Part shown: in pieces, positions 4,515 to 43,693 of the stretch
How the letters are laid out: each line of letters opens with the position of its first letter
Position numbering within the stretch: the first letter of the stretch is position 1
DNA from: a virus
Virus record (IMG/VR): IMGVR_UViG_3300048516_000001
Coordinates: 1-64,000 of that record
Direction: 5' to 3' (one strand)
DNA length: 64,000 nt
Program-made: the position numbers and the translations under genes
Notes under the pieces: generated by a model
Seen by the model: the letters and a program-made list of their open reading frames with translations, nothing else
Told to the model about the DNA's origin: nothing
Database searches by the model: none

Positions 4515-6319
4515 CCTGTCAACTCCTTGTATTCTGCAAGTGCTGATTCATAAGCTTTCGTCTTACCTGGTCGTGCATTCCATAATATCCAGATAATTTC
4601 GGTTTGGTTGTGTTTCGTTTCATGTTTCAGTTTTTGAATTAGCTCAATTGCTTGATTTCTGCCGAGTTTCAAGGGCGTGAAATAAGCAATACCAGAATCG
4701 GTGAAACTATTGTCAGATGGTTGTTTCACGCCTTGAGCGGTATCTGAAACCATTTCACCTTCGCCCAACTTCGGCTTAAAACCGAAAATCCGTTCCAGCC
4801 TCTCAACCTCACTCTCTTTGTCTGTCTTGATTTCAGTTTGCGACTCAATCGATTCTATTTCTTTAGGTTGTTCTAATTCAATTACAGCAGTATTTTGATG
4901 CTGCTGTTGATAGTACCTGACATCAGCTTGAAGGCAAACACTCGCTGGTTCCAATGTCGAGAAAATAATAGGACGTTCGCTGTGTTGTGAGATTGGTCTA
5001 AGCTTCTCAAACTCGGCAATTAATCTAACTCGAATATCTCTGTCGCTGATGATGTGCTGACTTTGAATCATGTAGGACAAAACACCATAAGAATCATTCA
5101 CTCCTTCATCGGTTGTATAGTAATTTCCCAGCCCAATTAGGTTGAAGTTTTGACGCGAGTTGTTGTCAGCTTTCATGCCAATTGCTTTTAGATTGAAACT
5201 TTGTAAATCTGCCCACAAGCAAACATTGAAGTCACGCCCGTTGAGAACAATATCTACTAATTCAACCAAGTAGTTAGAGTCTTTAACGTCGGGATGAGCG
5301 GTTAACTTCTCTAACGCTAAGCTGATGCTGAACCAGTCAGCCAGTAGTAGACGAACAGGTGATAGATTCTTCCTCTTTTCCTCGTCTAAGTGTCTGCGCT
5401 TGTCATAGATACTCCATACATGGTGAATAGTATCGAGTGTTTTTTTGACTTGGTTGATGTCAAAGATTGTGACTCGTCCCTTCTCTTTCAACCCACAGAA
5501 ACTATCATTTTTCTGACTAACTACCCAGAACTCTGCGGACGACTGTTTCTCTTTGAGTATTGAAATCAAAGCCGCTTGAGTAACGCTTTTACCGCCACCT
5601 GTACCTGCAATCAATAGCAGGGATTTCCTTGATAACGCTAGCTGATTAAGAATAGCTTTCGCTTTAGTTTCGGACGGATGTAACAAACCCGGTTCAAGCA
5701 CTGGTTGGCTAGCAATTTCAGTCACCCCAAACGTGTCAACGATACCGTCAGTCAAGATACTTTTTTTTTCAGCCTCGTTTTCGCTTGCTGACGGCAAGGA
5801 AGCTTGTTGATTGACTGATTGAGTGTTAACGGCGGGTAATTGCTGTTGCTGGCGTGTTTCCGGCTCACTAGCGTACCAATTGCTAGCTTCTGCAAGTTCA
5901 ATAAACGCGCTTTCAAGGTCTTTCTGGTGTGCTGTAACAGTTGTTGTTTTGTTCGCCTCGCACAACTCCCGCTCTGTTTGAAGTTCAATGTCAGTGCGGA
6001 TTTTACGAACCCGTTTTGCTTTCTGGTATTCCTCCCCCTCTAACTCGATTTCCGATAGTCGATTGGAGACTATCAGGAATGCCATCACCGACAGAGGAAC
6101 CGAACCCATTAACAACAGAATGGCTAGAATTGTGTAGTTTGACGCAACTTTGATGGCGGGCTTCTTGAGCACTTTGTATTCGTGCTCTGTGACGATTTGC
6201 TCGGTACTGGTTAATTGATAGCGGGTTTGTTTGGGAACCATTGCACCGAGTATCATCAGCGCGTAAGCAGCCGTCACACAGCCAGAAAACATTGCTACTG
6301 CTTTGAGGTTCTTTTTCAT
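4511..6319 (-). CDS. Membrane-anchored P-loop NTPase (FtsK/TcpA/coupling-protein-like)
   Basis: N-terminal hydrophobic helices, a coiled-coil, Walker A LLLIAGTGGGKSVT, and a hydrophobic strand ending in D (VRLLLADW). Overlaps both neighbours. Confidence 0.55.
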   Translation of the reverse strand: MKKNLKAVAMFSGCVTAAYALMILGAMVPKQTRYQLTSTEQIVTEHEYKVLKKPAIKVASNYTILAILLLMGSVPLSVMAFLIVSNRLSEIELEGEEYQKAKRVRKIRTDIELQTERELCEANKTTTVTAHQKDLESAFIELAEASNWYASEPETRQQQQLPAVNTQSVNQQASLPSASENEAEKKSILTDGIVDTFGVTEIASQPVLEPGLLHPSETKAKAILNQLALSRKSLLLIAGTGGGKSVTQAALISILKEKQSSAEFWVVSQKNDSFCGLKEKGRVTIFDINQVKKTLDTIHHVWSIYDKRRHLDEEKRKNLSPVRLLLADWFSISLALEKLTAHPDVKDSNYLVELVDIVLNGRDFNVCLWADLQSFNLKAIGMKADNNSRQNFNLIGLGNYYTTDEGVNDSYGVLSYMIQSQHIISDRDIRVRLIAEFEKLRPISQHSERPIIFSTLEPASVCLQADVRYYQQQHQNTAVIELEQPKEIESIESQTEIKTDKESEVERLERIFGFKPKLGEGEMVSDTAQGVKQPSDNSFTDSGIAYFTPLKLGRNQAIELIQKLKHETKHNQTEIIWILWNARPGKTKAYESALAEYKELTG

Positions 6320-6840
6320 CAGTAACCCCTCTTTCTTTTGGGTAGGAAGCTACTAGCGAACTTAACGGCTGTAAGTGCCGCCACAACCAGGAATCCGACA
6401 AGCACTGTAACAGCTAACTGCTGATTCTTGGCGAGCCAATCCAACATTAGGTCAGAGTTACTGATAGCAGCAGCGAAACCAGTTCCGATGCCACCAGTAA
6501 ACAATCGAAATTTGTCAAGTGTCTTGAGCTGCCCCCAAGTAAAGGCGAATATCAGCCCGACTCCGACTAACGCTAATCCAAACAACGCCATGACGACAAC
6601 AAACCAGTTGATTGAACGAAAGATTAGGAAAAGTAGTGATGCGCCGCTGATAAAGATGGTCAAACCCGCTAATTCCTGAGCTAGCACCCATTGCTTTGTA
6701 ACCCTTTTATAAAGGTCGTTTTCGATTGGAATAACATCGTTTTCTGCGTAATCTTCAGAGGCTACATCAATCGTCACCTCGGCTGATTTGTAGGGGGTAA
6801 TCGGAGTGTTTTCTTCCTCCCCCATTGGGTACATAAACAT
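6319..6840 (-). CDS. Multi-pass membrane protein
   Basis: 173 aa with about 4 hydrophobic helices. 1-nt overlap with the ATPase gene. Confidence 0.6.
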   Translation of the reverse strand: MFMYPMGEEENTPITPYKSAEVTIDVASEDYAENDVIPIENDLYKRVTKQWVLAQELAGLTIFISGASLLFLIFRSINWFVVVMALFGLALVGVGLIFAFTWGQLKTLDKFRLFTGGIGTGFAAAISNSDLMLDWLAKNQQLAVTVLVGFLVVAALTAVKFASSFLPKRKRGY

Positions 6841-9184: not shown

Positions 9185-9531
9185 TTGCCAAAAAATCAAT
9201 TTCTATTAATACAGTTTTATTGACATTGCTGGCTTTATCGCTGGTCGGCTGTGGCGACGAGAAAGGTAAAGCGATTCGGCAGAACGAATATGGAGTAGAT
9301 TGGCCGTTTACAGTGGAGGAAGGGAGGCTGTCTTGTGTCTGGTTTTCCGAACGTCGGCAAGTTGTGACGTTCATCGCACCAAACGGAACTGAATATGCGC
9401 TGAATGGTATTGCCCGTAGCTCAGGCTTTTTCCGACCTGTCGAACCAATCCACAAACCTGATCCAAGTAGCTCGCGATTGTACAAAAACTTAAACCCGGT
9501 GATTGCGAACGGGTTGAAGCTTTGTCCTTAA
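9181..9531 (+). CDS. Lipoprotein
   Basis: Signal peptide with lipobox LSLVGC. 4-nt overlap with the RHH gene. Confidence 0.65.
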   Translation: MIAKKSISINTVLLTLLALSLVGCGDEKGKAIRQNEYGVDWPFTVEEGRLSCVWFSERRQVVTFIAPNGTEYALNGIARSSGFFRPVEPIHKPDPSSSRLYKNLNPVIANGLKLCP

Positions 9532-9541
9532 GGGTGCAAAA

Positions 9542-9793
9542 ATGGAAGAAATAAAGACAGACCTAAAAAAGCTGATTCTATCCCATCAAAGCCTCAGCCA
9601 ACTCCGAAAACCGCGACAACAGTACATTGCCAATCAATTAGTTACCGTATTCTGTAAAGGTAAAAACCTAAAAACTGCACTTAGAGAAATTCATCAAAGT
9701 TGCGGAGAACGAACTAGGATTATTGCAAGTAAGGTGACGGAAGACTTGGCATTGCATCTCGCCAGGGTTGCGGCAATTCCTGACGAACCCTAG
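9542..9793 (+). CDS. Hypothetical protein
   Basis: 83-aa ORF followed by a strong terminator. Confidence 0.5.
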   Translation: MEEIKTDLKKLILSHQSLSQLRKPRQQYIANQLVTVFCKGKNLKTALREIHQSCGERTRIIASKVTEDLALHLARVAAIPDEP

Positions 9794-18156: not shown

Positions 18157-18552
18157 GTCGCAATCAACCTAAACCCCTATCAGGGATTGAAACCAGTACA
18201 GTGCCGCTTTATCCTTGCCTTGTGTGAGTCGCAATCAACCTAAACCCCTATCAGGGATTGAAACGTGGCTTCTTCGCAGACGACGCTAATAGCTTGCCGT
18301 CGCAATCAACCTAAACCCCTATCAGGGATTGAAACTGGAGCAAATTAAATAATGCTAATTAACAAAACTCGTCGCAATCAACCTAAACCCCTATCAGGGA
18401 TTGAAACGTGTCTAGTGGATCCGGTTGTAGGTGAATGAGTTTGGGTCGCAATCAACCTAAACCCCTATCAGGGATTGAAACTCAGACTAGCAATCATGTG
18501 CTGCACAAACATCAACGTCGCAATCAACCTAAACCCTACTAGGGATTGAAAC
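18157..18552 (+). CRISPR. CRISPR array, 6 repeats and 5 spacers, no adjacent cas genes
   Basis: 37-nt repeat GTCGCAATCAACCTAAACCCCTATCAGGGATTGAAAC starts at 18157, 18228, 18299, 18371, 18445 and 18517. The last copy is degenerate (36 nt). Spacers are 34, 34, 35, 37 and 35 nt, all different. Confidence 0.95.
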
Positions 18553-19059
18553 GTCCCCTTTGATGACTTGACCTAACCCGCCCGCCTGTTGCAAACCAGG
18601 CTTAGAAATCAACGTTTCAGTGAAGTCAACCGACAAAGGGCAACTGTAACCAGTAACCGACCCATGTTCTGAGTTCTGCCAGCCCCAAGATTCTTTCTTC
18701 TCTGCTGGCTGCGGAACCTTTACCCGCTTCAACTCTCGGATATACCAATGAGACTTATCATCGTAAATAACACTGTAGGGCGCTTGGATTGTTGACTTAC
18801 TTTTGTCTTTTGACACGATTGCACCTTCCTCATCCACAAGGTGACTCCAATACTTCCAAGGTAATCGACAGCATGGAGCGTACCCGCCACTCTCTTTACC
18901 ATCTAAACCGTTTGTAGCTTTGTAGTAGTAATAATTTGTTTCAAAATCTTCTAAGGCTGATAATCCACAATTCCACACAGACTTAGAAATTTGTAACCAC
19001 TTTTCTATTTTTTCTTTCTGTTCGAGAGACGGAAAACATTTAAATTCTAGTGTGAGCAT
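18529..19059 (-). pseudogene. Truncated tnpB-like (IS891/IS1341 OrfB-type) N-terminal fragment
   Basis: Starts MLTLEFKCFPSLEQKEKIEKWLQISKSVWNCGL, the TnpB/Cas12 N-terminal pattern. It has only 176 aa and no RuvC motifs. Its 3' end runs into the last CRISPR repeat. Confidence 0.5.
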
Positions 19060-19326
19060 AATTGAAAATCTTTTGCGAAGGGCTTTGCAAACTCAGTATA
19101 TCATGTTATCTTAGTAATATAAAGGTAGGGAGCTTTCACCCCATTACCTGTGAGCTTTGACTCATAAAAGCGAGTGTAGCGAAAGCAGCTTGAAGCTAGT
19201 CGTAAGACAGCAATCCTGAAAAATCGAAAGATGCGGGGAAACCCAAACAGGATAATTATCTGGTAGGGCAAAAGAGTGGGAACAATCTCGCTCTTTTGTT
19301 TTGGATTGAAATTGAAATTGAATATC

Positions 19327-19355
19327 TTGACAAGATTAATAGCGTTAGCTATAAT
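19327..19355 (+). promoter_or_regulatory. Consensus sigma70-type promoter
   Basis: TTGACA 19327-32, 17 nt, TATAAT 19350-55. Lies 27 nt before ATG 19382. Confidence 0.65.
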
Positions 19356-19381
19356 AGTAATATTTACCACTTCTCAATGTC

Positions 19382-19963
19382 ATGCAATTACTCCCTAATA
19401 GCGACTCACCGCAATCCGAAAGCATTGAGATTAACCAGCAGTTGCAACTATCTAGTAGCGACTCACCGCAACCTGAAGATATCGAAGAAATTAACTGGCA
19501 GTTGCAGTTAGCCAGCAAGGTACAAATTAAGCGGTGTAGCAAATGTGGAGTTTTCTCCAATCCGTATCAAAGTATCCCGCCAAAACAACTTGACGCTTGG
19601 TGCGATGACTGCTTTGTCAATACTCCAGCAATAGAACGCACTCGCAAAACCTCAGTCGGTGAACATTGGAAGTTGATACAGAAACAAGAAAGGGAAGCTC
19701 AAAAAAGAGCGGAATTGGTAGCACAGTTACAGGCACAAAAGAAATTGCTAGCCGAAAAACGTGCTAAGGATAAGAATGCACCTAAAAAGTCAAAAAAGAA
19801 GACTGTAGAAGACGCTTATTCGTTAGCCCTAGACTTTGGGGAGTTGAGCGTTGATGTAGAGGAGGACAAAGCACGGGACGCGATACTGGCACACGATGCA
19901 CGACGGGCGTACATTGCACGAGTGCAAGATAGGACAATTTTTGATGAAGACTATTGTCAGTAA
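19382..19963 (+). CDS. Hypothetical protein with tandem N-terminal repeat, Cys4 motif and basic coiled-coil
   Basis: 193-aa ORF with CSKC...CDDC. A 57/60-nt tandem duplication spans 19399-19510. The last codons and the stop lie inside the IscB element end. Confidence 0.6.
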   Translation: MQLLPNSDSPQSESIEINQQLQLSSSDSPQPEDIEEINWQLQLASKVQIKRCSKCGVFSNPYQSIPPKQLDAWCDDCFVNTPAIERTRKTSVGEHWKLIQKQEREAQKRAELVAQLQAQKKLLAEKRAKDKNAPKKSKKKTVEDAYSLALDFGELSVDVEEDKARDAILAHDARRAYIARVQDRTIFDEDYCQ

Positions 19964-20195
19964 CTCAGGTCTAAAGACACTGAGCTTGTAAGACGAAAGT
20001 TGAAGCAAGCTATCCTGACCAGCCTAAGTCTTAACTGACTACGTTTTTTGAGTCACGACACCCCGGAATGCGAAGCTAGTTCCTTGCCCTGTCGTCTGCA
20101 ATTAAACAGTTTTAAAGTCACTGAAACAGTGTTGCAGGTCTAAAAAGCTCTTAAAACATTGGCGAAGCTAACATAACCTAAGCAATTAGAGAAGG
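19954..20195 (+). ncRNA. Predicted IscB omega-RNA scaffold (guide expected just upstream, about 19935-19953)
   Basis: About 245 nt of non-coding sequence directly 5' of iscB, beginning with the hairpin CTCAGGTCTAAAGACACTGAG. IscB omega-RNAs are known to sit in this position. The fold was not verified. Confidence 0.5.
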
Positions 20196-20200
20196 CAGAA

Positions 20201-21472
20201 ATGTCAAATTACACATTAGTCATTGATTCAAATAAGCAGCCGTTAAGTCCATGTCATCCCTCGGTAGCAAGGAAATTACTAACGTCGGGTCAAGCTGCGG
20301 TATTCCGTATGTATCCATTCACCATCATTCTCAAAAAAGAGGTAATCGCCACGCCAGAACCCATTGAACTCAAAATAGACCCCGGTTCTAAAACAACTGG
20401 GATAGCCTTAGTTCAAGGGAACAAAGTTATCTTTGGTGCTGAACTAACTCATCGTGGTCAAGCTATTAAAGCAAGCCTTGAGTCTCGCAGGATTTTACGC
20501 CGGAATAGAAGAAATCGCCATACTCGCTACCGTCCCGCTAGATTCTTAAACCGGACTAAATCAAAGGGTTGGTTGGCTCCATCACTAACACATCGGGTAT
20601 TAACTACACTGACTTGGGTAAACAAGTTTATTCGGTTAGCTCCAATCAGTTCGATTTCTCAGGAGCTTGTGAGATTTGACTTACAGCAAATGGAGAATCC
20701 TGAAATATCAGGCATTGAGTACCAGCAAGGCACTCTTTCTGGCTACGAAGTACGTGAGTATCTACTTGAGAAATGGGATAGGAAATGTGCTTACTGTGAG
20801 ACAGAAAATATTTCCTTGCAGATAGAACATATTCATCCTAAATCAAAAGGTGGCTCGAATCGTATCTCCAATCTATGCCTAGCCTGTGAACATTGCAACA
20901 TCAAGAAAGGTACTCAAGATATCAAGGTTTTCTTAGCTAAGAAACCTGATGTTTTGAAAAAGGTACTTGCCCAAGCAAAGCGTCCACTAAAAGATGCAGC
21001 AGCGGTTAACTCTACTCGTTGGGCATTGTTCAACGCTCTTAAAACTACTGGATTAACTGTTACCACTGGTTCAGGAGGTAGAACCAAATTCAATCGAGCG
21101 AGCCTCAATCTTCCTAAGACTCATTGGCTAGACGCGGCTTGTGTCGGCGAAGTAGAAACATTAAAAGTCCTAACCAAAAAACCTTTGCTCATCAAGGCAA
21201 CTGGTCATGGTTCTAGGCAGATGTGTAGAACTGACAAGTTTGGATTCCCATCGCGCTATGTCCCTCGGTTCAAGTTTGTCCAAGGTTTCCAGACTGGCGA
21301 CATCGTGAAAGCGATTGTAACCAGTGGGAAGAAAATCGGAACCTATGTCGGGCGAGTTGCTGTTCGTTCTACTGGCAGTTTCAATATTTCTGCGTCAACA
21401 TTAGTTCAAGGTATTAGCCACAAGTATTGTTCAGCAATTCATAAAAAGGATGGTTATGCTTACTCAAATTAA
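20201..21472 (+). CDS. iscB: IscB RNA-guided nuclease (RuvC+HNH)
   Basis: PLMP-like N-terminus (KQPLSPCHPSVARKLL...YPFTIIL). RuvC-I IDPGSKTTGIA. Arg-rich bridge RRILRRNRRNRHTRYRPARFLNR. HNH CAYC..LQIEHIHPKSKGGSNRISNLCLACEHCNIKKG. RuvC-III KTHWLDAACVG. Confidence 0.9.
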   Translation: MSNYTLVIDSNKQPLSPCHPSVARKLLTSGQAAVFRMYPFTIILKKEVIATPEPIELKIDPGSKTTGIALVQGNKVIFGAELTHRGQAIKASLESRRILRRNRRNRHTRYRPARFLNRTKSKGWLAPSLTHRVLTTLTWVNKFIRLAPISSISQELVRFDLQQMENPEISGIEYQQGTLSGYEVREYLLEKWDRKCAYCETENISLQIEHIHPKSKGGSNRISNLCLACEHCNIKKGTQDIKVFLAKKPDVLKKVLAQAKRPLKDAAAVNSTRWALFNALKTTGLTVTTGSGGRTKFNRASLNLPKTHWLDAACVGEVETLKVLTKKPLLIKATGHGSRQMCRTDKFGFPSRYVPRFKFVQGFQTGDIVKAIVTSGKKIGTYVGRVAVRSTGSFNISASTLVQGISHKYCSAIHKKDGYAYSN

Positions 21473-21475
21473 GTC

Positions 21476-21558
21476 AGATTCAAGGCGATTGAAACCGCCG
21501 GGTCGTTTCCCTCTCAGCACTAAAGTGACTGAGTTTCCCACTTACCGAGTTGTTTATA
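21476..21558. repeat. 83-bp perfect inverted repeat, left copy (inverted LE)
   Basis: Exact reverse complement of 42106-42188, checked base by base. Confidence 0.95.
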
Positions 21559-21647
21559 TGAGGCAAAGACTTGAATAATTGTAATTTTAGCCGTCTTGAA
21601 AGACGGGGCTTTTACCCAGTTTTCTGGTAAATAGCTCTAAACGTACT

Positions 21648-22019
21648 TTGTCCATAAGTATTATGTCAGAAAACAAATTAATTCTACCTTCCGAAGTTGG
21701 TGAAGTGTCAGACGGGTTTCACACTTTTAATGAATTGTACGACCATCGCTGCACCTTGTTTCTCGCATTGTTAACGTTGGTTAATAATGCTTGGTATTCT
21801 AAAAAGCATAGTGACGGGTCTGAGTGGAGCGGCTGGTTTATTGCTGGCGTTGAGATAGAAGAAGGTAAGCAAATTACATATCATCTGCCTAATAAGTACC
21901 TGAGAATTGCTGAAGACAGGTTGGACTATAAGGAGTGTGCGCCGGAATGGGATGGACATACCTCAGCCGATGTTCTGATACGCTTGACAGAAGTGCGAGA
22001 CGCAAGCCCCTGGCTTTAG
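21648..22019 (+). CDS. Conserved phage-type hypothetical protein (EWDGH motif)
   Basis: 123-aa ORF with DGFHTFNELYDHR...WYSKKHSDGSEW...ITYHLP...EWDGHTS. Its last codons lie in the LE of the downstream IS. Confidence 0.55.
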   Translation: MSISIMSENKLILPSEVGEVSDGFHTFNELYDHRCTLFLALLTLVNNAWYSKKHSDGSEWSGWFIAGVEIEEGKQITYHLPNKYLRIAEDRLDYKECAPEWDGHTSADVLIRLTEVRDASPWL

Positions 22020-22113
22020 ACACGGGGAAAAGTCGGCAGCGGTTTCAACCGCATTGAATATTTCTTTACATTTCAATACGCAATATACAGATTCGTTCGT
22101 GTATACTGCGGGT

Positions 22114-22512
22114 ATGAAAGTAAAACTCAAATCCAATGCCAATGTAATATACTCTTGTAACTACCATATTGTTTGGTGTCCTAAGTATCGTAGGTCTGTG
22201 TTGATTAACGGTGTAGATATTCGCCTGAAATCGATTCTACAAGAAGTCTGTGCTGAATTCAATGCTGAGTTACTAGAAATGGAAGTCATGTCAGATCACG
22301 TCCACATTCTGGTAGGAGTAGACCCACAATTCGGAATTGCAAAATTAATTAGATACCTGAAAGGGCGTTCATCTCGACTGTTGAGGCAAGAATTTCCTTG
22401 GTTGAAAAGCCGACTACCAACTCTTTGGACAAATAGTTATTTCGTTGCAACGGTTGGTGGTGCACCGTTATCCGTCGTTAAGCAGTATATCGAGAATCAA
22501 AAAAATGTCTAA
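22114..22512 (+). CDS. tnpA: IS200/IS605 Y1 (HUH) transposase TnpA
   Basis: YHIVWCPKYRR, HUH motif SDHVHILV, and catalytic Tyr region SYFVATVGGAP. Start taken at MKVKLKS. Confidence 0.9.
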   Translation: MKVKLKSNANVIYSCNYHIVWCPKYRRSVLINGVDIRLKSILQEVCAEFNAELLEMEVMSDHVHILVGVDPQFGIAKLIRYLKGRSSRLLRQEFPWLKSRLPTLWTNSYFVATVGGAPLSVVKQYIENQKNV

Positions 22513-23772
22513 TTACGGATGCCAGCAAAACTTAATTAGTCCCGATTCTAGTCTGAAGGCGATTTTAGAGTTTGTATGTGGTGAATCAAATAAGTTGGCG
22601 AATTGTGCGCTGTACTATGGTCGTCAGTTGTATTTCAAGACTGGTAAGATTCCTGGAAAATACGATTTCCATAAAATGTTCAAATCAAATTTGCATTTTA
22701 AAGCTCTGTATTCTCATGTCGCGCAGCAAACTTTAACCAGCGTCGCCGAATCTTTTAGTTCGTACATTGGGCTACTAAAAGGAATTAAATCTGGGACTGT
22801 CACACAGCATCCAAGATTGCCGGGATACAGAAAAGATTCTCTGAAATTAGTAACATTCCCCAAAGCTGATGTCAAATTCAAAAACGGACTACTACGCTTT
22901 CCGTTGGGTAGCAAGGTCAAGCTTTGGTTTGGAGTTGGGGAATTCTTTTTGCCGATGCCATCAAATTTGGATTACAAGAAATTGATTGAAATTCGGATTC
23001 TCCCCAAAAATCGCTGTTTTTATGCCGAATTTGTGTATCGAACAGAGGAATTGGCTGTAGATGTTAGTCCAGGTCGTGTACTGGGATTAGACCACGGAAT
23101 TAATAACTGGTTGACAGGAGTATCCAATGTGGGAACTTCTTTCATTATTGATGGGCTACACCTAAAGTCCTTGAATCAATGGTACAACAAGCGAATCTCT
23201 GTCTTGAAAAAGAATCAACCCCAAGGTTTCTGGTCAAATCAATTAGCCAGGATTACCGAGAAAAGGAATAGACAAATTAGAGATGCAGTAAACAAAGCAG
23301 CGAGAATTGTAATTAACCACTGCCTTAAAAATCAAATAGAGACCGTAGTTTTCGGGTGGAATAAAGATCAGAAACAACGTGCAAATATGGGTAAAAAGAC
23401 TAATCAAAAATTCGTACAAATTCCCACGGGTAGACTGAAAGACAGGATATCTCAGTTATGCCAACAGCATGGAATTAAGTTTGTAGAAACCGAAGAAGCA
23501 TATACCTCAAAAGCCAGTTTTCTCGATAATGATTCACTACCTAAGTTCGGTGAAAAACCTGAAGGGTGGAAAGAATCAGGAAAAGAGTAACTCGCGGACT
23601 GTATCGTTCAGCAGATGGTACAAAAATCAATGCCGATTGCAACGGCGCAGCCAATATTATCAAAAAAGTAGCGGTAAAACTGGGATTGAATCTTAGTGGA
23701 ATCAGTAGCGGCGACTTGATAGCGCCTTTGAAAATCCGACTCTGGACTCTTCAAGAATCCCCTCGCCTTTAG
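22505..23772 (+). pseudogene. tnpB: tnpB (IS1341-type, no zinc finger) with a 1-nt frame disruption near 23582-23585
   Basis: Two overlapping ORFs (to 23590 and from 23566) together align with the intact TnpB at 42371-43693. The break falls at GGAAAAGAG, versus GGAAAACGAG in the intact copy. The RuvC-III motif NADCNGAANI lies after the break. Confidence 0.8.
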
Positions 23773-23830
23773 GCATGGGGAGTATCAAAGACTGGATTGA
23801 CAACGGTTCTTATATTTTGCCAAAGTATTG

Positions 23831-33669: not shown

Positions 33670-34812
33670 TCACCCTAAGATTCTACAGGCACATTCGGGC
33701 CTGATAACAGCGCATCCGTAGAGAACGTCGAAACAGAATTTTGTCTGTTTGTATTCGCGAGAAATCTCCAACCGCATTGTCATTCCCGACAGGTCATCGG
33801 TAAAAGATTCAATTCGATTTCCGATTGGGTCAATGTCTAATAATGGGCGAACAGCAAGCGCAAAGGAGTCTCGGTGGAAAGCCATGTTGACGACGTGACT
33901 AGCTACAACCGTGATAGCTGTACTCGCAGCGGGAGCAGTTTTTAGTGCTGGAGAAATTGGCCAACTTGTTAAGGTGGCGTCCTTTCCTACAACGTAGCCG
34001 TTCGGGTCGCCTGCAATCTTGAACAAATCACCTTCGACAGGTGCGACTGTTGCACCAGAAACAGTTAAAGTTTTCACCCCAATCGTGTTGGCTGCGCCCG
34101 TCGTAACAATCGTACCCGCAGCTTGGGTTGCATGAGTAAGGGAGTTTTGGGTCATGTACCAGTCAAAGCCAAGTTTTCGACCAATCATCCCCTCTTGAAT
34201 TGTTGCAACAGAACCAGAGTCGGATGCAGAAATAAATTGAGGAAGTGAGGTTGCGTTTGCCTCAGCATCAACATCTAAGATAATTCGGCGGTCAGCCATT
34301 GGAGCAAGTTGTCGGTTCAGAACTTTTCTTGCTTCTTGTGCTGCACCCAACCCACGATGTGAGGCATAAGTTCCAGCTACTTCCGGTTGAAAAGGTGTTT
34401 GTCCAGCAGTTCCGGCTATACCTGAAATCTGTTTGTACAATCCCATAATTGACTTGTCAATCGAGTTCGCCAAACTACGAGCGGCTTCGAGAACTTGCAA
34501 ATTTTGAAATCCATCCATTACTTGAAGAAGGTCTTTGTCTGTCATCGCAAATTCGACCTTCTTCCACTGGTCAAGCTTTACTTGCACCATGCTCGGCGAA
34601 ATTGCTGGAGCGGGGTAGGGGATGTGATTGGGAATTACATCTACGGCATCGCCCATGCTGGAAGGAATTGGAACATCGACAGTTGAACCGCGTTGCCTTG
34701 CGTCGGTGTCAAAGTTTCGATTAACGAGCGCACCCATGACTGAGTTTTCGCGCAACGCCACAATACCTTGGGCGAGAATTTTAGGGATTACTGCTTCTAA
34801 ATTATTAGCCAC
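33670..34812 (-). CDS. Major capsid protein (HK97-fold, P22-coat-like family)
   Basis: 380 aa. The N-terminus LEAVIPKILAQGIVALRENSVMGALVNRNFDTDARQRGSTVDVPIP is typical of this coat family. Lies directly downstream of the scaffold gene. Confidence 0.75.
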   Translation of the reverse strand: MANNLEAVIPKILAQGIVALRENSVMGALVNRNFDTDARQRGSTVDVPIPSSMGDAVDVIPNHIPYPAPAISPSMVQVKLDQWKKVEFAMTDKDLLQVMDGFQNLQVLEAARSLANSIDKSIMGLYKQISGIAGTAGQTPFQPEVAGTYASHRGLGAAQEARKVLNRQLAPMADRRIILDVDAEANATSLPQFISASDSGSVATIQEGMIGRKLGFDWYMTQNSLTHATQAAGTIVTTGAANTIGVKTLTVSGATVAPVEGDLFKIAGDPNGYVVGKDATLTSWPISPALKTAPAASTAITVVASHVVNMAFHRDSFALAVRPLLDIDPIGNRIESFTDDLSGMTMRLEISREYKQTKFCFDVLYGCAVIRPECACRILG

Positions 34813-35732: not shown

Positions 35733-35773
35733 AAATGATTATAATAGAGGTTTCAATCTTTATTATAATCACC

Positions 35774-37309
35774 ATGCCGCTTAAATTCAAGCATCAAGCC
35801 ATCGAACAAGACCCAGACTTGCCATCTTATTTGAGTGAAGAATACTTGAATCAGTTGCCGTTCTGGGAATTCGTAGCTGATATGTACGAAGGTAGAACGG
35901 CATGGTATATGGTTGAGCCATTCCGAACTGGGTCAAGTATGGTTCTTGACATCAATATAGGCGCAAGATATTTGCCCAGAGAAGAGGCTGAACCTGAAGA
36001 AGAGTATGCGAAGCGCATGACTCGAAGTTACTTTGACAGAAAGTTTGCAGATGCTATCGACAGTAGTGCCGGATTTTTGTCTCGCTTTTTGTTGAATGAT
36101 GATGTACACGAAAGTATTAAAACCAGTATCGACAACGTTGACCTCTGTGGTAACAGTCTGGAGGTATTCTTGAAGGCAGCAGATATAAAAAGTCTGCGAG
36201 ATGACCACTGCTTTGTCATGGTTGATTTTCCAAAGCGAAACACCGAAATAACTGACGCTTATACTGAATCAAAATACAAAACTCGCCCGTATTTTTTATT
36301 AATTGATGCTAGAGATGTTATTAACTGGAATACTGAAATCAAGAACAATAAAATGATGGTGACTCAAGCCACAGTTCGGGAAACTTTTGTTAGAAAAACT
36401 GGACGATACGGTAGTGAAAAGGCGACTCGTTATCGAGTGTTAACCCCAGGCGCTTATAAGGTATATGAAATAGAAGAAATAGAAGAAACGCCAACGCGGA
36501 CTGATTTAATTTTAGTTGAAGAAGGTACAACCACGCTAGATTTTGTACCGTTGATTCCCTATTGCTTGCTACCGAGAGACTCAGACTTTTTTACTGGCAA
36601 ACCACCGTTGTACGATATTGCCGAATTGAATTTAAAACTATATCAGAAACAGTCTGAAAAAGATGAAGCGATGCACAAAGCGAATATGGCTATTTTGCAA
36701 ATTCAAGAAACAAGTCCTCCTAGAGTGAGGTCTGACAAAGACGAAACTCGTGTTGCAACAATAGGGCCGAACACTTGTCTGTGGAACGTGAACGCTTCAT
36801 TTGTTGAACCATCGGGTTCAGCACTAGGACATACACAAGCTGACATTGAAAAGCTAGAGCTAACTATTGAGAAAAAGACACTCGCTTTTCAAAGCGGATA
36901 CGCTGCACCCCCTACGGCAACAGAGATTGCGCGTGATTCAGCCACGGCACAAGCTAGTTTAGGCTCAATGGCTAGAGCTAAAGAAAGCATTGTGCAACAA
37001 CTGTTTGATACTTGGTGTTTGTACATGAATGCACCGGGCAAAGGTGGAACTATTAAAGTTAATAAAAAGATTGTTGAAGTTGGAATGAGTGAAGCGAAAG
37101 CCGGATTGTTATTACAAATCCGTGCCGCTGGTGAGATTACTCGTCAAACATTCTTAGAAGAGTTACGCAAAGGCGATGTATTGAGTAAAGACTTTGATGT
37201 TAATGCCGAGGTTGAAAAACTAGAGAGTAAAATGAAGCAAGAGATGACAACACAATTAAGTAAGGCGACGGCATTAGCAAATGACAACCCCGCAGCAATT
37301 TATCAGTAG
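35774..37309 (+). CDS. Portal protein
   Basis: About 510 aa. Divergent from the scaffold gene and directly followed by an SPP1-gp7/MuF-like gene. Start set at MPLKFKH. Confidence 0.6.
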   Translation: MPLKFKHQAIEQDPDLPSYLSEEYLNQLPFWEFVADMYEGRTAWYMVEPFRTGSSMVLDINIGARYLPREEAEPEEEYAKRMTRSYFDRKFADAIDSSAGFLSRFLLNDDVHESIKTSIDNVDLCGNSLEVFLKAADIKSLRDDHCFVMVDFPKRNTEITDAYTESKYKTRPYFLLIDARDVINWNTEIKNNKMMVTQATVRETFVRKTGRYGSEKATRYRVLTPGAYKVYEIEEIEETPTRTDLILVEEGTTTLDFVPLIPYCLLPRDSDFFTGKPPLYDIAELNLKLYQKQSEKDEAMHKANMAILQIQETSPPRVRSDKDETRVATIGPNTCLWNVNASFVEPSGSALGHTQADIEKLELTIEKKTLAFQSGYAAPPTATEIARDSATAQASLGSMARAKESIVQQLFDTWCLYMNAPGKGGTIKVNKKIVEVGMSEAKAGLLLQIRAAGEITRQTFLEELRKGDVLSKDFDVNAEVEKLESKMKQEMTTQLSKATALANDNPAAIYQ

Positions 37310-39133: not shown

Positions 39134-39898
39134 ATGGCGATTACCTTTTACGACTACAAGACAAATCCGACAATTAAAATTCGCAATAAATTAGTAGAAG
39201 AAAATATCAATTTAGCTCGTTTTGTCGCACATAAAATTGCGTCAAGAGTGCCTATTCCTTACGAAGAATTAGAGCAAATTGCATCAATGGGATTGATTTT
39301 AGCAGTTGAGCGGTACGACCCTACAATAGGTGCTAAATTTAGCACCTTTGCAATCCCCTTGATTACGGGACGGCTATTGAACTTCGTTAGAGACAGTTCT
39401 AATGTCATTCAATTGCCTCGAAAGTATCATGAGATACTTCAAAAAGGAAAGAGAATCCTCAGAGAATTAAGCGTATCTTTGGGGCGGACTCCCACTAAAA
39501 ACGAGTTCTTTCAATCACTTTTCAACCTTGGGGTTACTCAATCTGAGTTTTGCAAGGCTAAAAAAGCATATCAAGATTGTAGATACATATCCTGCTATGA
39601 TACCGCAATCAGTAGTGTCTCAGATACGCTTAACTCAGAGGTTGAGCCAACTTATTCTTATAAATCGCGGGAATTGCAAGCTAACGAAACTCACATAGTA
39701 AATAGTTTAGAAAAGAATGAGTTAATAGGTAAAATAAAGAATATATTAGAAGTGGATATTGCCGATTTGAGCTATCAAGAAGCCGTAATCCGCTTGTACT
39801 TCTTTGAATATCTATCCGTCAATAGAATAATTGAATTGTTAGACCTGTCTAAAGTACAAGTATTTGAAGCTATAAAAGAGTGGTGTCGGTCTGTCTAG
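39134..39898 (+). CDS. Sigma-70 family sigma factor (group 3/SigF-like)
   Basis: Region 2: GLILAVERYDPTIGAKFSTFAIPLITGRLLNFVRD. Region 4-like HTH: LSYQEAVIRLYFFEYLSVNRIIELLDLSKVQV. Confidence 0.75.
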   Translation: MAITFYDYKTNPTIKIRNKLVEENINLARFVAHKIASRVPIPYEELEQIASMGLILAVERYDPTIGAKFSTFAIPLITGRLLNFVRDSSNVIQLPRKYHEILQKGKRILRELSVSLGRTPTKNEFFQSLFNLGVTQSEFCKAKKAYQDCRYISCYDTAISSVSDTLNSEVEPTYSYKSRELQANETHIVNSLEKNELIGKIKNILEVDIADLSYQEAVIRLYFFEYLSVNRIIELLDLSKVQVFEAIKEWCRSV

Positions 39899-40256
39899 GC
39901 TTTAGTATCTGCTTGAACGAATTGATATCTTTGGCTTCAAGAATACTTTTTGATTTTTCTTTCTTGTTCTGAATATTCGCCCAAGTTCTATGCTCTAACT
40001 CGCCCAAATCAAAAGAATCATTGCTCAAGGTAGATTCTAATACACGTTTAAACTGTTCAACCTCAGATTCATTAAGCAATATATTAGCCAGTCGCCACGC
40101 CTTGCGAATAGTCTGTGGGTCTTCATTTCCAAAGTCCGCTAAGCTTGTGAAATCATTAGTGAAACTAGCTTTTAAAAATCGAATAGCCAATATTCCTGAT
40201 TCCATTGTTTTAACTCTTGTAATATCCAATGCCTGTTTGATATCGAATAGGTTCAT
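39870..40256 (-). CDS. Hypothetical protein
   Basis: 128-aa ORF downstream of terL, overlapping its end. Confidence 0.45.
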   Translation of the reverse strand: MNLFDIKQALDITRVKTMESGILAIRFLKASFTNDFTSLADFGNEDPQTIRKAWRLANILLNESEVEQFKRVLESTLSNDSFDLGELEHRTWANIQNKKEKSKSILEAKDINSFKQILKPRQTDTTLL

Positions 40257-41619
40257 TTAGACAGAAATGTGCACCAGAAGCAGCATCGGTAATATCTTTG
40301 ACTTTCCCATCAGGAAACTCGTGCATCCAGCTTAAAAATCTGTCATTCCACGAGGCTCGTAGAAGCTTGACTTTCCCCCTAAAAGTGTCAGTAGCCAAAG
40401 GCTTTGCACGTTTCACCTTGTCTCCGAGTGGTCGGACACCTTCTGCATCAATATCTGGGTGTAATCCCATTAGTAATTGCTTGATATGCTCCTCGTCGCG
40501 TTTTCCACTACTTCCCCCTTCCAACTCCCAACGGACTTTGCACCACAATCCGTCCTGTTGCGCGGTTGCTATCATTAATTCGTCGCCGCCAACCGGCCCA
40601 ACTTGTTCAGCGATAACGTCAACCACGTAATAAATTTCATCAACTAATCGCATTTTGACTCCGGCGGTATAGCAGGCGTTAGAACGAACGGCCGCCTCTG
40701 TTGCCGCCAAATCCCAAAACCTAACTTCTTCGCCGTTGTAATCTAAAGGCGGAACATCATCAACAATTTCAAACCAAGCGCGGTTAAATAACTTCCCCGA
40801 CTCTTCCTTAACTTTCCAATTTCCATAAAGTAGTCGAGCTTGGTCTACCGGATGCAAAGCCTGAAGATTTGCCAGATACTCCGGGTTCTGCTGCATCAAA
40901 ATTTGATTGTCTTCGATTTTAGCAGGAATGAAAGTAAAGCTTTTTGCCATTAAGTCAGGATATCTATTCTCAAGTTCATCTCTTGAGCTACCCCAAACAA
41001 TCTCGCCACTCTGCCGAATAAAGTAACGAACAATTCCACTGTGTTCTGGAATCGGGAACCCTTCATCATCTAGCCACCAATCAACAAACCCCGCAATCCA
41101 AGAGTCGGCATCGGGGTTAGTTGTACAACGAACATAGGGGCGAATTCCACAAGTTGAGCGGTTGCGACTAAACAGATAGAAAACAACTGATTCGCTAAAA
41201 TGTGTTAATTCGTCTATCAGTAGAAGGGGAATTTGACTACCTTGATACTTGTACTTAGCTTGCTCGTTTCCCAAGTGTCCAAACCCTATTTTTGCGCCAC
41301 TAGGAAACAGCCAGTCAAGCGTACCTCTTCTAGGGATTGCACCTAATAGCGGATAGATGTCTTCTGAAGTATCCCAAAGTGCGCCTTCTTCGGTTATTTG
41401 AGGAAAACTTTGTCTAAAAAAGACGGCACCAAATTTTGGATTTGTTATATGACGTAAAGCCTCTAGTAGCAGTGCATAAGTTTTTCCTCCACCTGCCCCG
41501 CCGCCGTAAATAGAGAAGTCAGCGGAGGTAGTTAAAAATGCTTCTTGCTGTCCCGATTGTGGCTTAAGTATTAAATCTGATGACTTGACGGGTAATTTCT
41601 TGTATTGTTTTACGGGCAT
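40210..41619 (-). CDS. terL: Terminase large subunit
   Basis: Walker A YGGGAGGGKTY, Walker B LLLIDELTHF, C-terminal nuclease-like half. 469 aa. Confidence 0.9.
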   Translation of the reverse strand: MPVKQYKKLPVKSSDLILKPQSGQQEAFLTTSADFSIYGGGAGGGKTYALLLEALRHITNPKFGAVFFRQSFPQITEEGALWDTSEDIYPLLGAIPRRGTLDWLFPSGAKIGFGHLGNEQAKYKYQGSQIPLLLIDELTHFSESVVFYLFSRNRSTCGIRPYVRCTTNPDADSWIAGFVDWWLDDEGFPIPEHSGIVRYFIRQSGEIVWGSSRDELENRYPDLMAKSFTFIPAKIEDNQILMQQNPEYLANLQALHPVDQARLLYGNWKVKEESGKLFNRAWFEIVDDVPPLDYNGEEVRFWDLAATEAAVRSNACYTAGVKMRLVDEIYYVVDVIAEQVGPVGGDELMIATAQQDGLWCKVRWELEGGSSGKRDEEHIKQLLMGLHPDIDAEGVRPLGDKVKRAKPLATDTFRGKVKLLRASWNDRFLSWMHEFPDGKVKDITDAASGAHFCLNEPIRYQTGIGYYKS

Positions 41620-42246: not shown

Positions 42247-42384
42247 ATGAGTAAAAAAGCGTTGCAGATACAGATAGACAAAATCGAAAGAGAGAAGTTA
42301 GAAGCCCTTTCTTCTAACTGGGGGCTGAGTTTGGCGGGTGTAATCAGAAGGCTGATTAGGGAGTTTGAATATGGCAAAAACTAG
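42247..42384 (+). CDS. Small RHH/CopG-like protein inside the IS (45 aa)
   Basis: My translation: MSKKALQIQIDKIEREKLEALSSNWGLSLAGVIRRLIREFEYGKN. It has an RHH-like strand plus helices. Below the ORF-track cutoff. Confidence 0.4.
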   Translation: MSKKALQIQIDKIEREKLEALSSNWGLSLAGVIRRLIREFEYGKN

Positions 42385-43693
42385 AAAAAGTATGGGCGTT
42401 CAGCAAGTGCTATTACACCCAGACATAGAGACCAAATCAATACTCAATTACTTGTGTGAACAGTCAGGGAAGCACTATAACAACGGTGTCTACTTTGCGC
42501 GTCAAACGTTTTTTAAGACTGGAAAATTGTTAACCGGAAAGTTTGACTTGGTTTATGAGCCGACTGTTTCTAAGACTATTGTAGCTAAGTCACTACCTTC
42601 TGTGCCTGCCCAGCAAACTCTTTTGTCTGTGACTGAAGCATTCAAATCTTTTAAGGGCTTACGTGAGCTTTATTTCAATGGTCAGTTGCATTTCAAGCCT
42701 AAAGCACCTAATTATCTCAAAGGTACAAAACTGTTCAAGGTTGCTTATCCTAATTCAGGTGGACAAAAACCAATTTTGAATAATGGACAGTTGAGATTCT
42801 CTTTGGGGTTGACAGTTAGACGCTGGTTTGGAGTATCAGAATTGTTTCTGCCGATGTCGTCAAACATTGATATCGGCAATGTGAAAGAGTTTACAATCCT
42901 ACCTAAAAATGGTGCATTCTATCTTGAGTTGTCCTATGAGATTGCAAGTCAAAAGCATGAGTTAGATATTAATCAAGCGCTATCCATTGACTTAGGGACT
43001 GCTGACAACCTAGCTGCTTGTGTCGATACTCTGGGAAATTCTATGCTAATTGATGCCAGAGCAATGAAGGCGATGAATCAGCTTTGGAATAAAAAAGTAT
43101 CGACTCGCAAGGATGGGAAAGAACACGCTTACTGGGATGACTGGCTAGACCGTGTGACCCGTAAGCGCAACCATCAAATGAGAGATGGCACTAACAAAGC
43201 TGCAAAGTTGATTGTTGACCATTGTCTTAAGTTTGGTATTGGGACATTGGTAATCGGTTGGAATGAAGGCTTCAAAACTAATGCTAACATGGGCAAAGTA
43301 AACAATCAAAAGTTTGTACAGATGCCTTTGGGGAAGCTCAAAGAGCGGTTGAAGCAACTCTGCGAATTACATGGCATTAGATTTGAAGAAACCGAAGAAG
43401 CCTATACCTCTAAAGCTAGTTTCTTAGATGGAGATTCCCTACCCAAGTACGGCGAAAAGCCTGAAGGGTGGAAAGCATCAGGAAAACGAGTTAAGAGGGG
43501 CTTGTATCGTTCAGGAAACGGCTCAGTGGTGAATGCAGACTTAAATGGCGCTGCAAACATCCTTAGAAAAGTAGCCAGCAAGTTAGGCATAGACCTAAAC
43601 CAACTGGGAAGGCGGTGTTTGACGACCGTAGCGAGAATAAGACTTTGGGTTTTACCTAGAGTTGTTCTGTCCGCAGAATCTCAGTCTCTTTAG
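42371..43693 (+). CDS. tnpB: TnpB RNA-guided nuclease (intact, zinc-finger-less variant)
   Basis: RuvC-I LSIDLGTADN, RuvC-II VIGWNEGFK, RuvC-III NADLNGAANILRK. Homologous throughout to 22505-23772. The start could also be 42365 or 42392. Confidence 0.9.
   Translation: MAKTRKSMGVQQVLLHPDIETKSILNYLCEQSGKHYNNGVYFARQTFFKTGKLLTGKFDLVYEPTVSKTIVAKSLPSVPAQQTLLSVTEAFKSFKGLRELYFNGQLHFKPKAPNYLKGTKLFKVAYPNSGGQKPILNNGQLRFSLGLTVRRWFGVSELFLPMSSNIDIGNVKEFTILPKNGAFYLELSYEIASQKHELDINQALSIDLGTADNLAACVDTLGNSMLIDARAMKAMNQLWNKKVSTRKDGKEHAYWDDWLDRVTRKRNHQMRDGTNKAAKLIVDHCLKFGIGTLVIGWNEGFKTNANMGKVNNQKFVQMPLGKLKERLKQLCELHGIRFEETEEAYTSKASFLDGDSLPKYGEKPEGWKASGKRVKRGLYRSGNGSVVNADLNGAANILRKVASKLGIDLNQLGRRCLTTVARIRLWVLPRVVLSAESQSL

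Follow-up and report, generated by a model that had tools for sequence, protein, structure and literature searches.

The 64-kb stretch of viral DNA described here (positions 1 to 64,000 of IMG/VR record IMGVR_UViG_3300048516_000001; hereafter the window) carries an iscB gene and its upstream omega-RNA on an insertion sequence of about 1.6 kb. In our view, to which we attach a probability of roughly 0.85, this is a non-autonomous ISC element (positions 19956-21557, followed by ATGA) from a cyanobacterial clade, which has transposed into a cyanophage and whose IscB takes its guide from the flanking DNA. This interpretation is built on the identity of the protein and of its RNA, the ends of the element, a conserved motif next to one of them, the absence of the element from sibling phage genomes and purifying selection on the gene, all of which were established in this study.

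Judged by its domains and residues, the open reading frame (ORF) at 20201-21472 encodes an intact IscB of 423 amino acids; the frame is full length, with no internal stop. Its features are as follows.

20201-21472, + strand: iscB, with the domain order PLMP-type N-terminus, RuvC-I, arginine-rich bridge helix, RuvC-II, HNH, RuvC-III and C-terminal region.
IscB residues, N-terminal half of the motif list: PLSP 14-17; IDPGS 59-63; arginine-rich segment 96-118; SQELVRFD 153-160.
IscB residues, remaining motifs: CAYC 196-199; IEHIHP 208-213; CEHCN 229-233; THWLDAA 307-313.

An earlier note on this DNA had assigned the frame to IscB from such hallmarks as read by eye. All of the motifs that it listed were located, and the position that it described as PLMP-like reads PLSP. 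The Pfam family RRXRR (PF14239), which is the N-terminal module of IscB comprising RuvC-I and the bridge helix, matches residues 6-177 over model positions 2-174 of 174 (E = 8e-74, 247.7 bits). The Pfam family HNH matches residues 196-238 (E = 8e-10), where HNH_5 matches too, and the zinc site of this domain has its two CxxC pairs (196-199 and 229-232). The product has its HNH domain placed between RuvC-II and RuvC-III, the arrangement that separates IscB from IsrB and TnpB. A phmmer comparison with PDB chains returned IscB, IsrB and Cas9 entries only, the best matches being TbaIscB (9K30, 1.9e-35) and OgeuIscB (7XHT, 6.5e-28).

The catalytic residues of OgeuIscB are known from published work (PMC9640706). 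In the alignment with that enzyme the RuvC residues D60, E155, H308 and D311 correspond to OgeuIscB D61, E193, H340 and D343, and the HNH residue H210 corresponds to H247, with the pair E209-H210 opposite H246-H247. These five residues and both CxxC pairs are invariant in 18 IscB homologues, which bears out the statement of the earlier note that the catalytic residues are intact. The ratio of nonsynonymous to synonymous substitution rates (dN/dS) is 0.126 between this gene and the Lyngbya copy L001; this was the one valid comparison, four more distant loci having been dropped with their sequences out of register. Because the ratio against the nearest copy is 0.126, we consider the gene to be under purifying selection and the copy not visibly decayed. 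A database protein of 387 amino acids (P0012) is 100% identical to this IscB.

Comparison with OgeuIscB (PDB entries 7XHT, 7UTN and 8CSZ) indicates the same domain order, with the PLMP motif at residues 14-17 in both proteins, although it reads PLMP in OgeuIscB and PLSP here. OgeuIscB is longer, having 496 residues against 423; in the protein from the window the linker after the bridge helix is about 38 residues shorter and the C-terminal region about 40 residues shorter. The phmmer match to OgeuIscB covers residues 6-342 only, and alignment to the solved IscBs in general runs only to near residue 343, beyond which the WED/TAM-interacting region (TAM, transposon-adjacent motif) would lie. Inside the clade the C-terminal region is highly conserved, as seen in the 18 homologues. 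The two systems also differ in the motif itself, which is NWRRNA for OgeuIscB and, by inference, ATGA here. Cas9 is likewise RNA-guided, and its RuvC domain too is interrupted by a bridge helix and an inserted HNH domain, but it has a REC lobe, uses a CRISPR RNA together with a trans-activating CRISPR RNA and is linked to an array, whereas the present IscB has 423 residues, no REC lobe, one long omega-RNA and no array link.

HEARO was initially known as a structured RNA beside HNH-endonuclease ORFs, and its role as the omega-RNA of IscB came later. The 245 nt of noncoding DNA before iscB (19956-20200) hold a full-length HEARO, where the earlier note had expected an omega-RNA in about 245 nt. 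The note had named a covariance-model scan as the test that might refute this expectation; in that scan Rfam HEARO (RF02033) matched 19956-20177 on the + strand with 149.5 bits (gathering score 83; E = 2e-31) along all 211 model positions (1-211), and it was the sole Rfam match within the window. The RNA and the element share their first base (19956), and the Rfam match finishes 24 nt ahead of the iscB start codon on the same strand.

19956-20190, + strand: omega-RNA (HEARO) scaffold, consisting of the Rfam match 19956-20177 plus a terminal GNRA hairpin at 20178-20189.

As well as matching the full RF02033 model, the RNA retains the same helices backed by covariation: in an alignment of 28 independent copies, 33 of the 56 pairs predicted by RNAalifold show compensatory double changes. 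It differs from the model in one extra GNRA-capped hairpin (20178-20189), which lies 3' of the model end and directly before the ribosome-binding site. As read from the alignment, the stems of this terminal hairpin differ between copies yet pair (CUAA/UUAG, CAC/GUG, CCC/GGG, CGA/UCG and CUGA/UCAG). The extra hairpin agrees with the remark of Meers and coworkers that such downstream elements are missing from the Rfam model (Meers et al., bioRxiv 10.1101/2023.03.14.532601). The identification of HEARO with the IscB omega-RNA is likewise taken from the literature (Meers et al., 10.1101/2023.03.14.532601; PMC13565253). The phage copy has an omega-RNA score as high as those of the chromosomal copies.

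The ends of the element were defined by comparison. A scan of one genome per species gave 220 relatives of the IscB protein, from which 80 loci were kept, nearly all of them from filamentous cyanobacteria. When positions 19000-22500 were compared with these 80 loci using BLAST, similarity in most of them began at 19953-19956 and stopped at about 21561. At the left-hand boundary in window coordinates, 35 ends from different cyanobacterial genomes have GTCAG or GTAAG at the position of 19956, with wholly unrelated flanks upstream. At the right-hand boundary all of the ends (32 of 32) terminate with ATGA at the position corresponding to 21558-21561, the bases beyond being unrelated between copies, and the block CTGAGTTTCC is conserved in these 32 ends. 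From this comparison the element is 19956-21557, followed by ATGA at 21558-21561. The ends at 19954 and 21558 in the earlier note were therefore close, within 2-3 nt of 19956 and of 21557 or 21561. Its use of 'left end' for the omega-RNA side has to be reversed, since in IS200/IS605 terms the HEARO end is the transposon right end and iscB runs antisense to the top strand (Meers et al., 10.1101/2023.03.14.532601).

21558-21561, + strand: ATGA, which is TCAT on the transposon top strand; probable TAM or target site.
19964-19984, no strand assigned: right-end hairpin, CTCAG-GTC-TAAA-GAC-A-CTGAG, 8 bp with a one-base bulge.
21513-21533, no strand assigned: left-end hairpin, CTCAG-CAC-TAAA-GTG-A-CTGAG, bulged; subterminal at the transposon left end, read on the - strand.

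The ATGA at 21558-21561 is probably the TAM. An element-free sibling genome, L082, reads CAATGA/GGCAAAG at the matching place, with similarity to the window resuming at 21558, and this natural ATGA in the absence of an element supports the motif being derived from the target. Since the invariant ATGA corresponds to TCAT on the top strand, which is near the TTCAT determined experimentally for GstIscB (Meers et al., 10.1101/2023.03.14.532601), we take 19956-21557 as the transposon proper and 21558-21561 as the adjacent motif. According to the same study, the motif abutting the transposon left end is recognized by the transposase and the nuclease alike, and cleavage by GstIscB is abolished by single-base changes in it.

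The hairpin at 19964-19984, which the earlier note had described as perfect, is real yet contains a one-base bulge. On the + strand it forms the first stem-loop of the omega-RNA and on the - strand the subterminal hairpin of the transposon right end; it is visible in the HEARO alignment, and its stem covaries across copies (columns 11-29). Both hairpins have the common design CTCAG-NNN-TAAA-NNN-A-CTGAG, and both fold as minus-strand DNA. The element has neither terminal inverted repeats nor a target-site duplication, its flanks being TATT on one side and ATGAGG on the other. No ORF for a Y1 (HUH) transposase was found inside 19956-21561 in an ORF and Pfam scan, and we therefore regard the element as a non-autonomous member of the IS200/IS605 family. 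Its ends and gene content are those of an ISC insertion sequence of this family, about 1.6 kb long and containing only iscB and the omega-RNA.

Among the closest known systems is ISGst5 of Geobacillus stearothermophilus, the element of GstIscB, which has the same gene content, namely iscB with an upstream HEARO-type omega-RNA at the transposon right end. ISC elements of this type likewise have a flank-derived guide and subterminal hairpins at both ends and lack a terminal inverted repeat and a target-site duplication, and the GstIscB motif TTCAT is nearly the same as the TCAT found here. The element in the window is non-autonomous, as are about 98% of iscB loci, and it shares the orientation of the upstream gene; in published surveys about 1.5% of iscB genes lie near tnpA, and IscB elements tend toward the orientation of the upstream gene (Meers et al., 10.1101/2023.03.14.532601). 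The differences are that ISGst5 is carried by a chromosome and the present element by a phage genome, and that the present protein is only distantly related to the tested enzymes and is known from its sequence.

The carrier is, by its gene content, a phage genome, and the whole window is phage-like, as the earlier note had suggested. Its diagnostic genes are listed below.

33670-34812: P22-type coat protein.
35735-37309: portal.
40210-41619: large terminase.
61809-63365: tail fibre.

The window further encodes a Mu-F-like protein, a primase/helicase-type replication protein and a C5 methyltransferase. Megablast of the element region and of 20 kb of the window against deposited phages gave no match, and no deposited phage has a large terminase more than 46% identical to that of the window. 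Beside the packaging genes, ORF 39134-39898 encodes a sigma-factor-like protein with a Sigma-70 region 2 domain (E = 2e-11).

Sibling genomes were found in IMG/VR and in a JGI metagenome, namely L081, L082 (with the same arrangement as L120 and L121) and L083, with flanking DNA that is 86-98% identical to the window. The IscB element is absent from L081, L082/L120 and L083, and similarity to the window breaks at 19953-19955, within the following gene.

19382-19963, + strand: phage gene, function unassigned, its 3' end rewritten by the insertion; 91-98% protein identity to L081, L082 and L083.

The sibling gene ends ...GAC TAT TAT GGT GAA CGG AAG GAT GAT TAG and its protein ...DEDYYGERKDD, whereas the window gene ends ...GAC TAT T/GT CAG TAA (the slash marking the junction) and its protein ...DEDYCQ; the element supplies part of the TGT codon, then CAG and the stop TAA. 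Because sibling similarity ends at the start of the element, the insertion appears to have swapped out the last seven codons of the gene. The comparison of the two states places the insertion point to the base, and it upholds the claim of the earlier note that gene and element overlap at the last codons and stop codon of the gene. Since siblings that are 92-98% identical in the flanks lack the element, the insertion into the phage is, on this comparison, recent. The same gene contains a 57-bp tandem duplication (19395-19506; 1.9 copies, 78% match), which gives a repeated peptide near the N-terminus.

The relatives of the element point to its origin. The closest copy lies on the chromosome of Lyngbya sp. 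CCAP 1446/10, with 94% protein identity and 91.7% DNA identity over 1613 bp, which covers the whole element. The best relatives in general are chromosomal copies in Lyngbya, Microcoleus, Anabaena and Planktothrix, with 79-94% amino-acid identity. The protein database contains at least 8000 matches below 1e-20, the top ones being 79-94% identical and many of them named 'RNA-guided endonuclease IscB'. By these counts the IscB clade is extremely abundant in filamentous cyanobacteria, and the element most likely moved from the chromosome of a host of this kind into the tailed cyanophage.

The predicted guide, and a promoter-like site that bears on its transcription, are as follows.

19940-19955, + strand: predicted guide, 16 nt, TTTGATGAAGACTATT, from the flank and outside the transposon.
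19327-19355, + strand: sigma-70-type promoter-like site, TTGACA-17-TATAAT, 12 of 12 consensus positions, ahead of gene 19382-19963.

The guide of the omega-RNA is predicted to be the 3' end of gene 19382-19963. The earlier note had derived it from this gene end in general terms, and the comparison places it at 19940-19955 if a length of 16 nt is borrowed from published IscB systems. The flank directly 5' of the scaffold is unrelated among 35 independent copies. Within the window the guide sequence is unique; in the siblings it is matched at 16 of 16 positions in L081 and L083 and at 15 of 16 in L082. The IscB element and the upstream gene share their orientation, and no terminator-like site was found between the 19327-19355 promoter-like site and iscB. 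Read-through transcription from the upstream gene into the omega-RNA and iscB is thus plausible from the arrangement, and the 19327-19355 site is a candidate source of it. The fold of a terminator-like hairpin at about 21591-21606 is no more stable than those of shuffled sequence.

For transcription, guide length, cleavage and homing we extrapolate from published IscB work (Meers et al., 10.1101/2023.03.14.532601; PMC13565253; PMC9640706). The element would have landed next to TCAT/ATGA at the 3' end of a phage gene, oriented as that gene. Read-through from the upstream gene would then give an omega-RNA with the 16 nt TTTGATGAAGACTATT from the phage flank at its 5' end, followed by a HEARO scaffold of about 235 nt. 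IscB would bind this RNA, and its RuvC and HNH sites would cut DNA in which a match to the guide is followed by ATGA. Such DNA could be the 'empty' site that excision leaves behind or, in a co-resident genome, an allele without the element, and repair of the break from an element-bearing copy would restore or spread the element. Mobilization itself would require a Y1 transposase acting in trans.

Free-standing HNH homing endonucleases of the T4 Seg/Mob type are also selfish nuclease genes between phage genes, which spread by cutting the element-free allele followed by recombinational repair. Their targeting is by protein only, whereas an RNA guide and a short motif are predicted here, for an element that has transposon ends and numerous copies on chromosomes. 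For the gene in the window a protein-only HNH homing endonuclease was considered and was rejected on the RRXRR/RuvC domains and the HEARO RNA.

Several observations weigh against the interpretation that we prefer. The promoter at 19327-19355 is a consensus match only, and such sites are no commoner in the region than expected from shuffled sequence. An AlphaFold model of IscB, made with 18 close homologues, has a mean predicted local distance difference test score (pLDDT) of 40 and a predicted template-modelling score (pTM) of 0.23, and the C-terminal TAM-interacting domain is not readable from it. The guide match in the siblings is followed by ATGG, not ATGA. L082 holds about 920 bp with three small ORFs between the two junctions, a segment which is absent from the window, and a simple insertion into a sibling-like allele does not by itself describe this difference: either the ancestor was a variant already without the 920 bp, or the segment beside the element was lost after insertion, both of which are possible histories. 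The two junction sites share an ATT..ATG microhomology, which we note for the variant-ancestor option. The one-step empty site that this option implies (...GACTATT-ATGA-GGCAAAG..., searched as the pattern GAAGACTAYTATGAGGCAAAGA) was not found in viral contigs. Searches of metagenome and viral contigs with a 20-mer from the right flank returned the L082-type arrangement and three chance matches only, and searches of 17-19 nt, aimed at a cleavable target and at the same junction, gave unrelated chance matches only (L125-L165). The alleles that distinguish the two histories are GACTATTATGAGGCAAAG, which is the one-step empty site, and GGATTCA-GTCAGTAAC, which would indicate insertion before the 920-bp loss.

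The three small ORFs of the sibling segment, to which no function is assigned, lie at L082 6573-7493 (and also at L081 6572-7340), the exact place of the IscB element in the window. Missing from L083 are both these ORFs and the WDGH gene that follows the element in the window. A segment of about 50 bp from the WDGH gene (window 21825-21877) recurs with 90-98% identity in the sibling cassette, where it forms the 3' end of the first small ORF (L081 6967-7018; L082 6957-7006), and it is a possible recombination substrate in this variable region. More generally, the interval from the replication genes to the downstream genes is a hotspot at which these phages differ in gene content.

A different view of the same element is that it acts as a homing drive or weapon between phages, its IscB cutting the element-free allele of gene 19382-19963 in co-infecting relatives, so that repair would copy the element and linked markers into competitors or the break would destroy or exclude them. 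The guide is indeed phage sequence, matched fully in L081 and L083 and at 15 of 16 positions in L082; the part of these phage genomes that holds the element is highly variable; for OMEGA systems, 'non-restorative homing' that targets co-infecting phages or plasmids has been put forward (PMC13565253); and the fact that about 920 bp of sibling DNA are replaced at this exact site would be a trace of such events. If true, this would be a natural RNA-guided gene drive among cyanophages, comparable to the free-standing homing endonucleases of T-even phages. However, all three siblings have ATGG after the guide match, as against ATGA at 32 of 32 insertions, and GstIscB loses cleavage by single-base changes in its TAM. 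Nor was a phage allele with a cleavable site found in the searches of viral and metagenome contigs, and a flank-derived guide arises automatically in any IscB insertion and so is no evidence of adaptation. We consider this view unlikely, and slightly less likely still that the copy is intact in appearance only, inactive or unexpressed and tolerated at the end of a non-essential gene. Its lack of a transposase, the single HEARO match in the window, which means that there is no second copy, and the frameshift in a neighbouring IS605 TnpB, which implies that transposable elements decay in this genome, would all fit a copy of that kind. They have to be set against a full-length frame without a stop, catalytic residues and CxxC pairs that are intact and invariant, the dN/dS of 0.126 against the nearest copy, an omega-RNA score equal to that of chromosomal copies, and an insertion recent enough to be absent from siblings 92-98% identical in the flanks.

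It is very improbable that IscB and the Y1 transposase encoded downstream form a single autonomous transposon. This transposase, TnpA at 22054-22512 (Pfam 2e-45), is on the same strand as iscB and 582 bp downstream of it, and a TnpA within 1 kb of iscB is what Meers et al. (10.1101/2023.03.14.532601) call 'autonomous'. Against such a unit, the IscB element stops at 21557/21561 in 32 independent copies, a Y1 transposase occurs in the flanks of just 2 of about 88 related IscB loci, and the WDGH-domain gene (21648-22019) and phage sequence shared with L082 (21558-21991) intervene. The TnpA moreover belongs to an element of its own.

~21989-23788: separate IS605-type element with its own TnpA, TnpB and hairpins.

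This second element has TTGAC as its left flank and TATCAA as its right end, is absent from L082/L120 and cuts the 3' end of the WDGH-domain gene. Its TnpB lies in two different frames (22445-23590 and 23566-23772), owing to either a frameshift or a sequencing error. With separate ends and phage DNA between the two, a composite transposon of the IscB element and the downstream TnpA was rejected. The TnpA of the window acting in trans on the IscB element is possible. The most consistent interpretation of these data is, in our view, still that of a non-autonomous ISC element of cyanobacterial origin inserted at the 3' end of gene 19382-19963.

A CRISPR-like array lies about 1.4 kb upstream of the IscB element, with two other ORFs intervening.

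18157-18552: CRISPR-like array, six repeats of 36-37 nt (GTCGCAATCAACCTAAACCCCTATCAGGGATTGAAAC) and five spacers of 34-37 nt.

None of the scanned ORFs of the window was recognized as a cas gene, and the spacers had no match in the fetched loci. The array is also present in siblings without IscB; L081 has at least 16 repeats at this position and zero spacers in common with the window. An IscB associated with CRISPR was rejected, as the array is common to IscB-free siblings. At the edge of the array, ORF 18529-19059 (- strand, 176 amino acids) has an N-terminus that resembles the start of TnpB (weak Pfam HTH_OrfB_IS605 match, E = 0.005), and its 3' end enters the last CRISPR repeat; the region is conserved in L082 and L083, and from its sequence the ORF could be a truncated TnpB or be related to the array. 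A solo TnpB (42365-43693), with OrfB_IS605 and Cas12f1-like TNB domains, lies beside the large terminase gene and is the third IS200/IS605-family nuclease gene in this phage genome.

The earlier note had called an IscB on a virus or plasmid next to a CRISPR array and TnpB elements an unusual combination, which overstates the case. A tblastn search of 50,697 deposited phage records returned 15 full-length IscB homologues. Microcoleus phage My-WqHQDG (OR578707) has a homologue with 66% identity and a HEARO RNA of 129 bits; Nodularia phage vB_NspS-kac68v162 (MK605246) has one with 65% identity beside an IS607 tnpA/tnpB pair; 12 Ralstonia phage records (Heva, Claudette and others) have one with 55% identity; and an uncultured-phage record (LR756508.1) has one with 45% identity. 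Eight IMG/VR contigs have IscB together with HEARO, and an IsrB-like protein in cyanophage Ma-LMM01 has been noted in the literature. One putative viral contig of 101 kb (L113, IMG/VR UViG_3300036939_000049) carries two HEARO RNAs about 3 kb apart (6119-6341 and 9320-9542), which suggests two IscB-type elements in tandem. The deposited copies are annotated merely as 'HNH endonuclease' or 'hypothetical protein'. Like the copy in the window they are full-length homologues on tailed-phage genomes, but the phages are different ones, without DNA similarity to the window. IscB on a phage is thus rare yet has precedent, and so does its combination with TnpB elements.

Cas9 descends from IscB-omega-RNA elements, which also serve as a source of compact genome editors. 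To that picture the present copy adds little, given the thousands of near-identical cyanobacterial relatives of its protein clade; the element is an ordinary member of a known, very abundant family in a rarer setting. Its value lies in that setting, where an intact phage copy can be compared with element-free siblings, so that the insertion point is fixed and the capture of a guide from a phage gene is visible. Together, the siblings and the chromosomal copies support ATGA as the adjacent motif of an untested and very abundant cyanobacterial IscB clade. The copy also indicates that phages can ferry IscB elements between hosts, and its guide, motif and sibling alleles provide a concrete system for the question of OMEGA homing between co-infecting phages.

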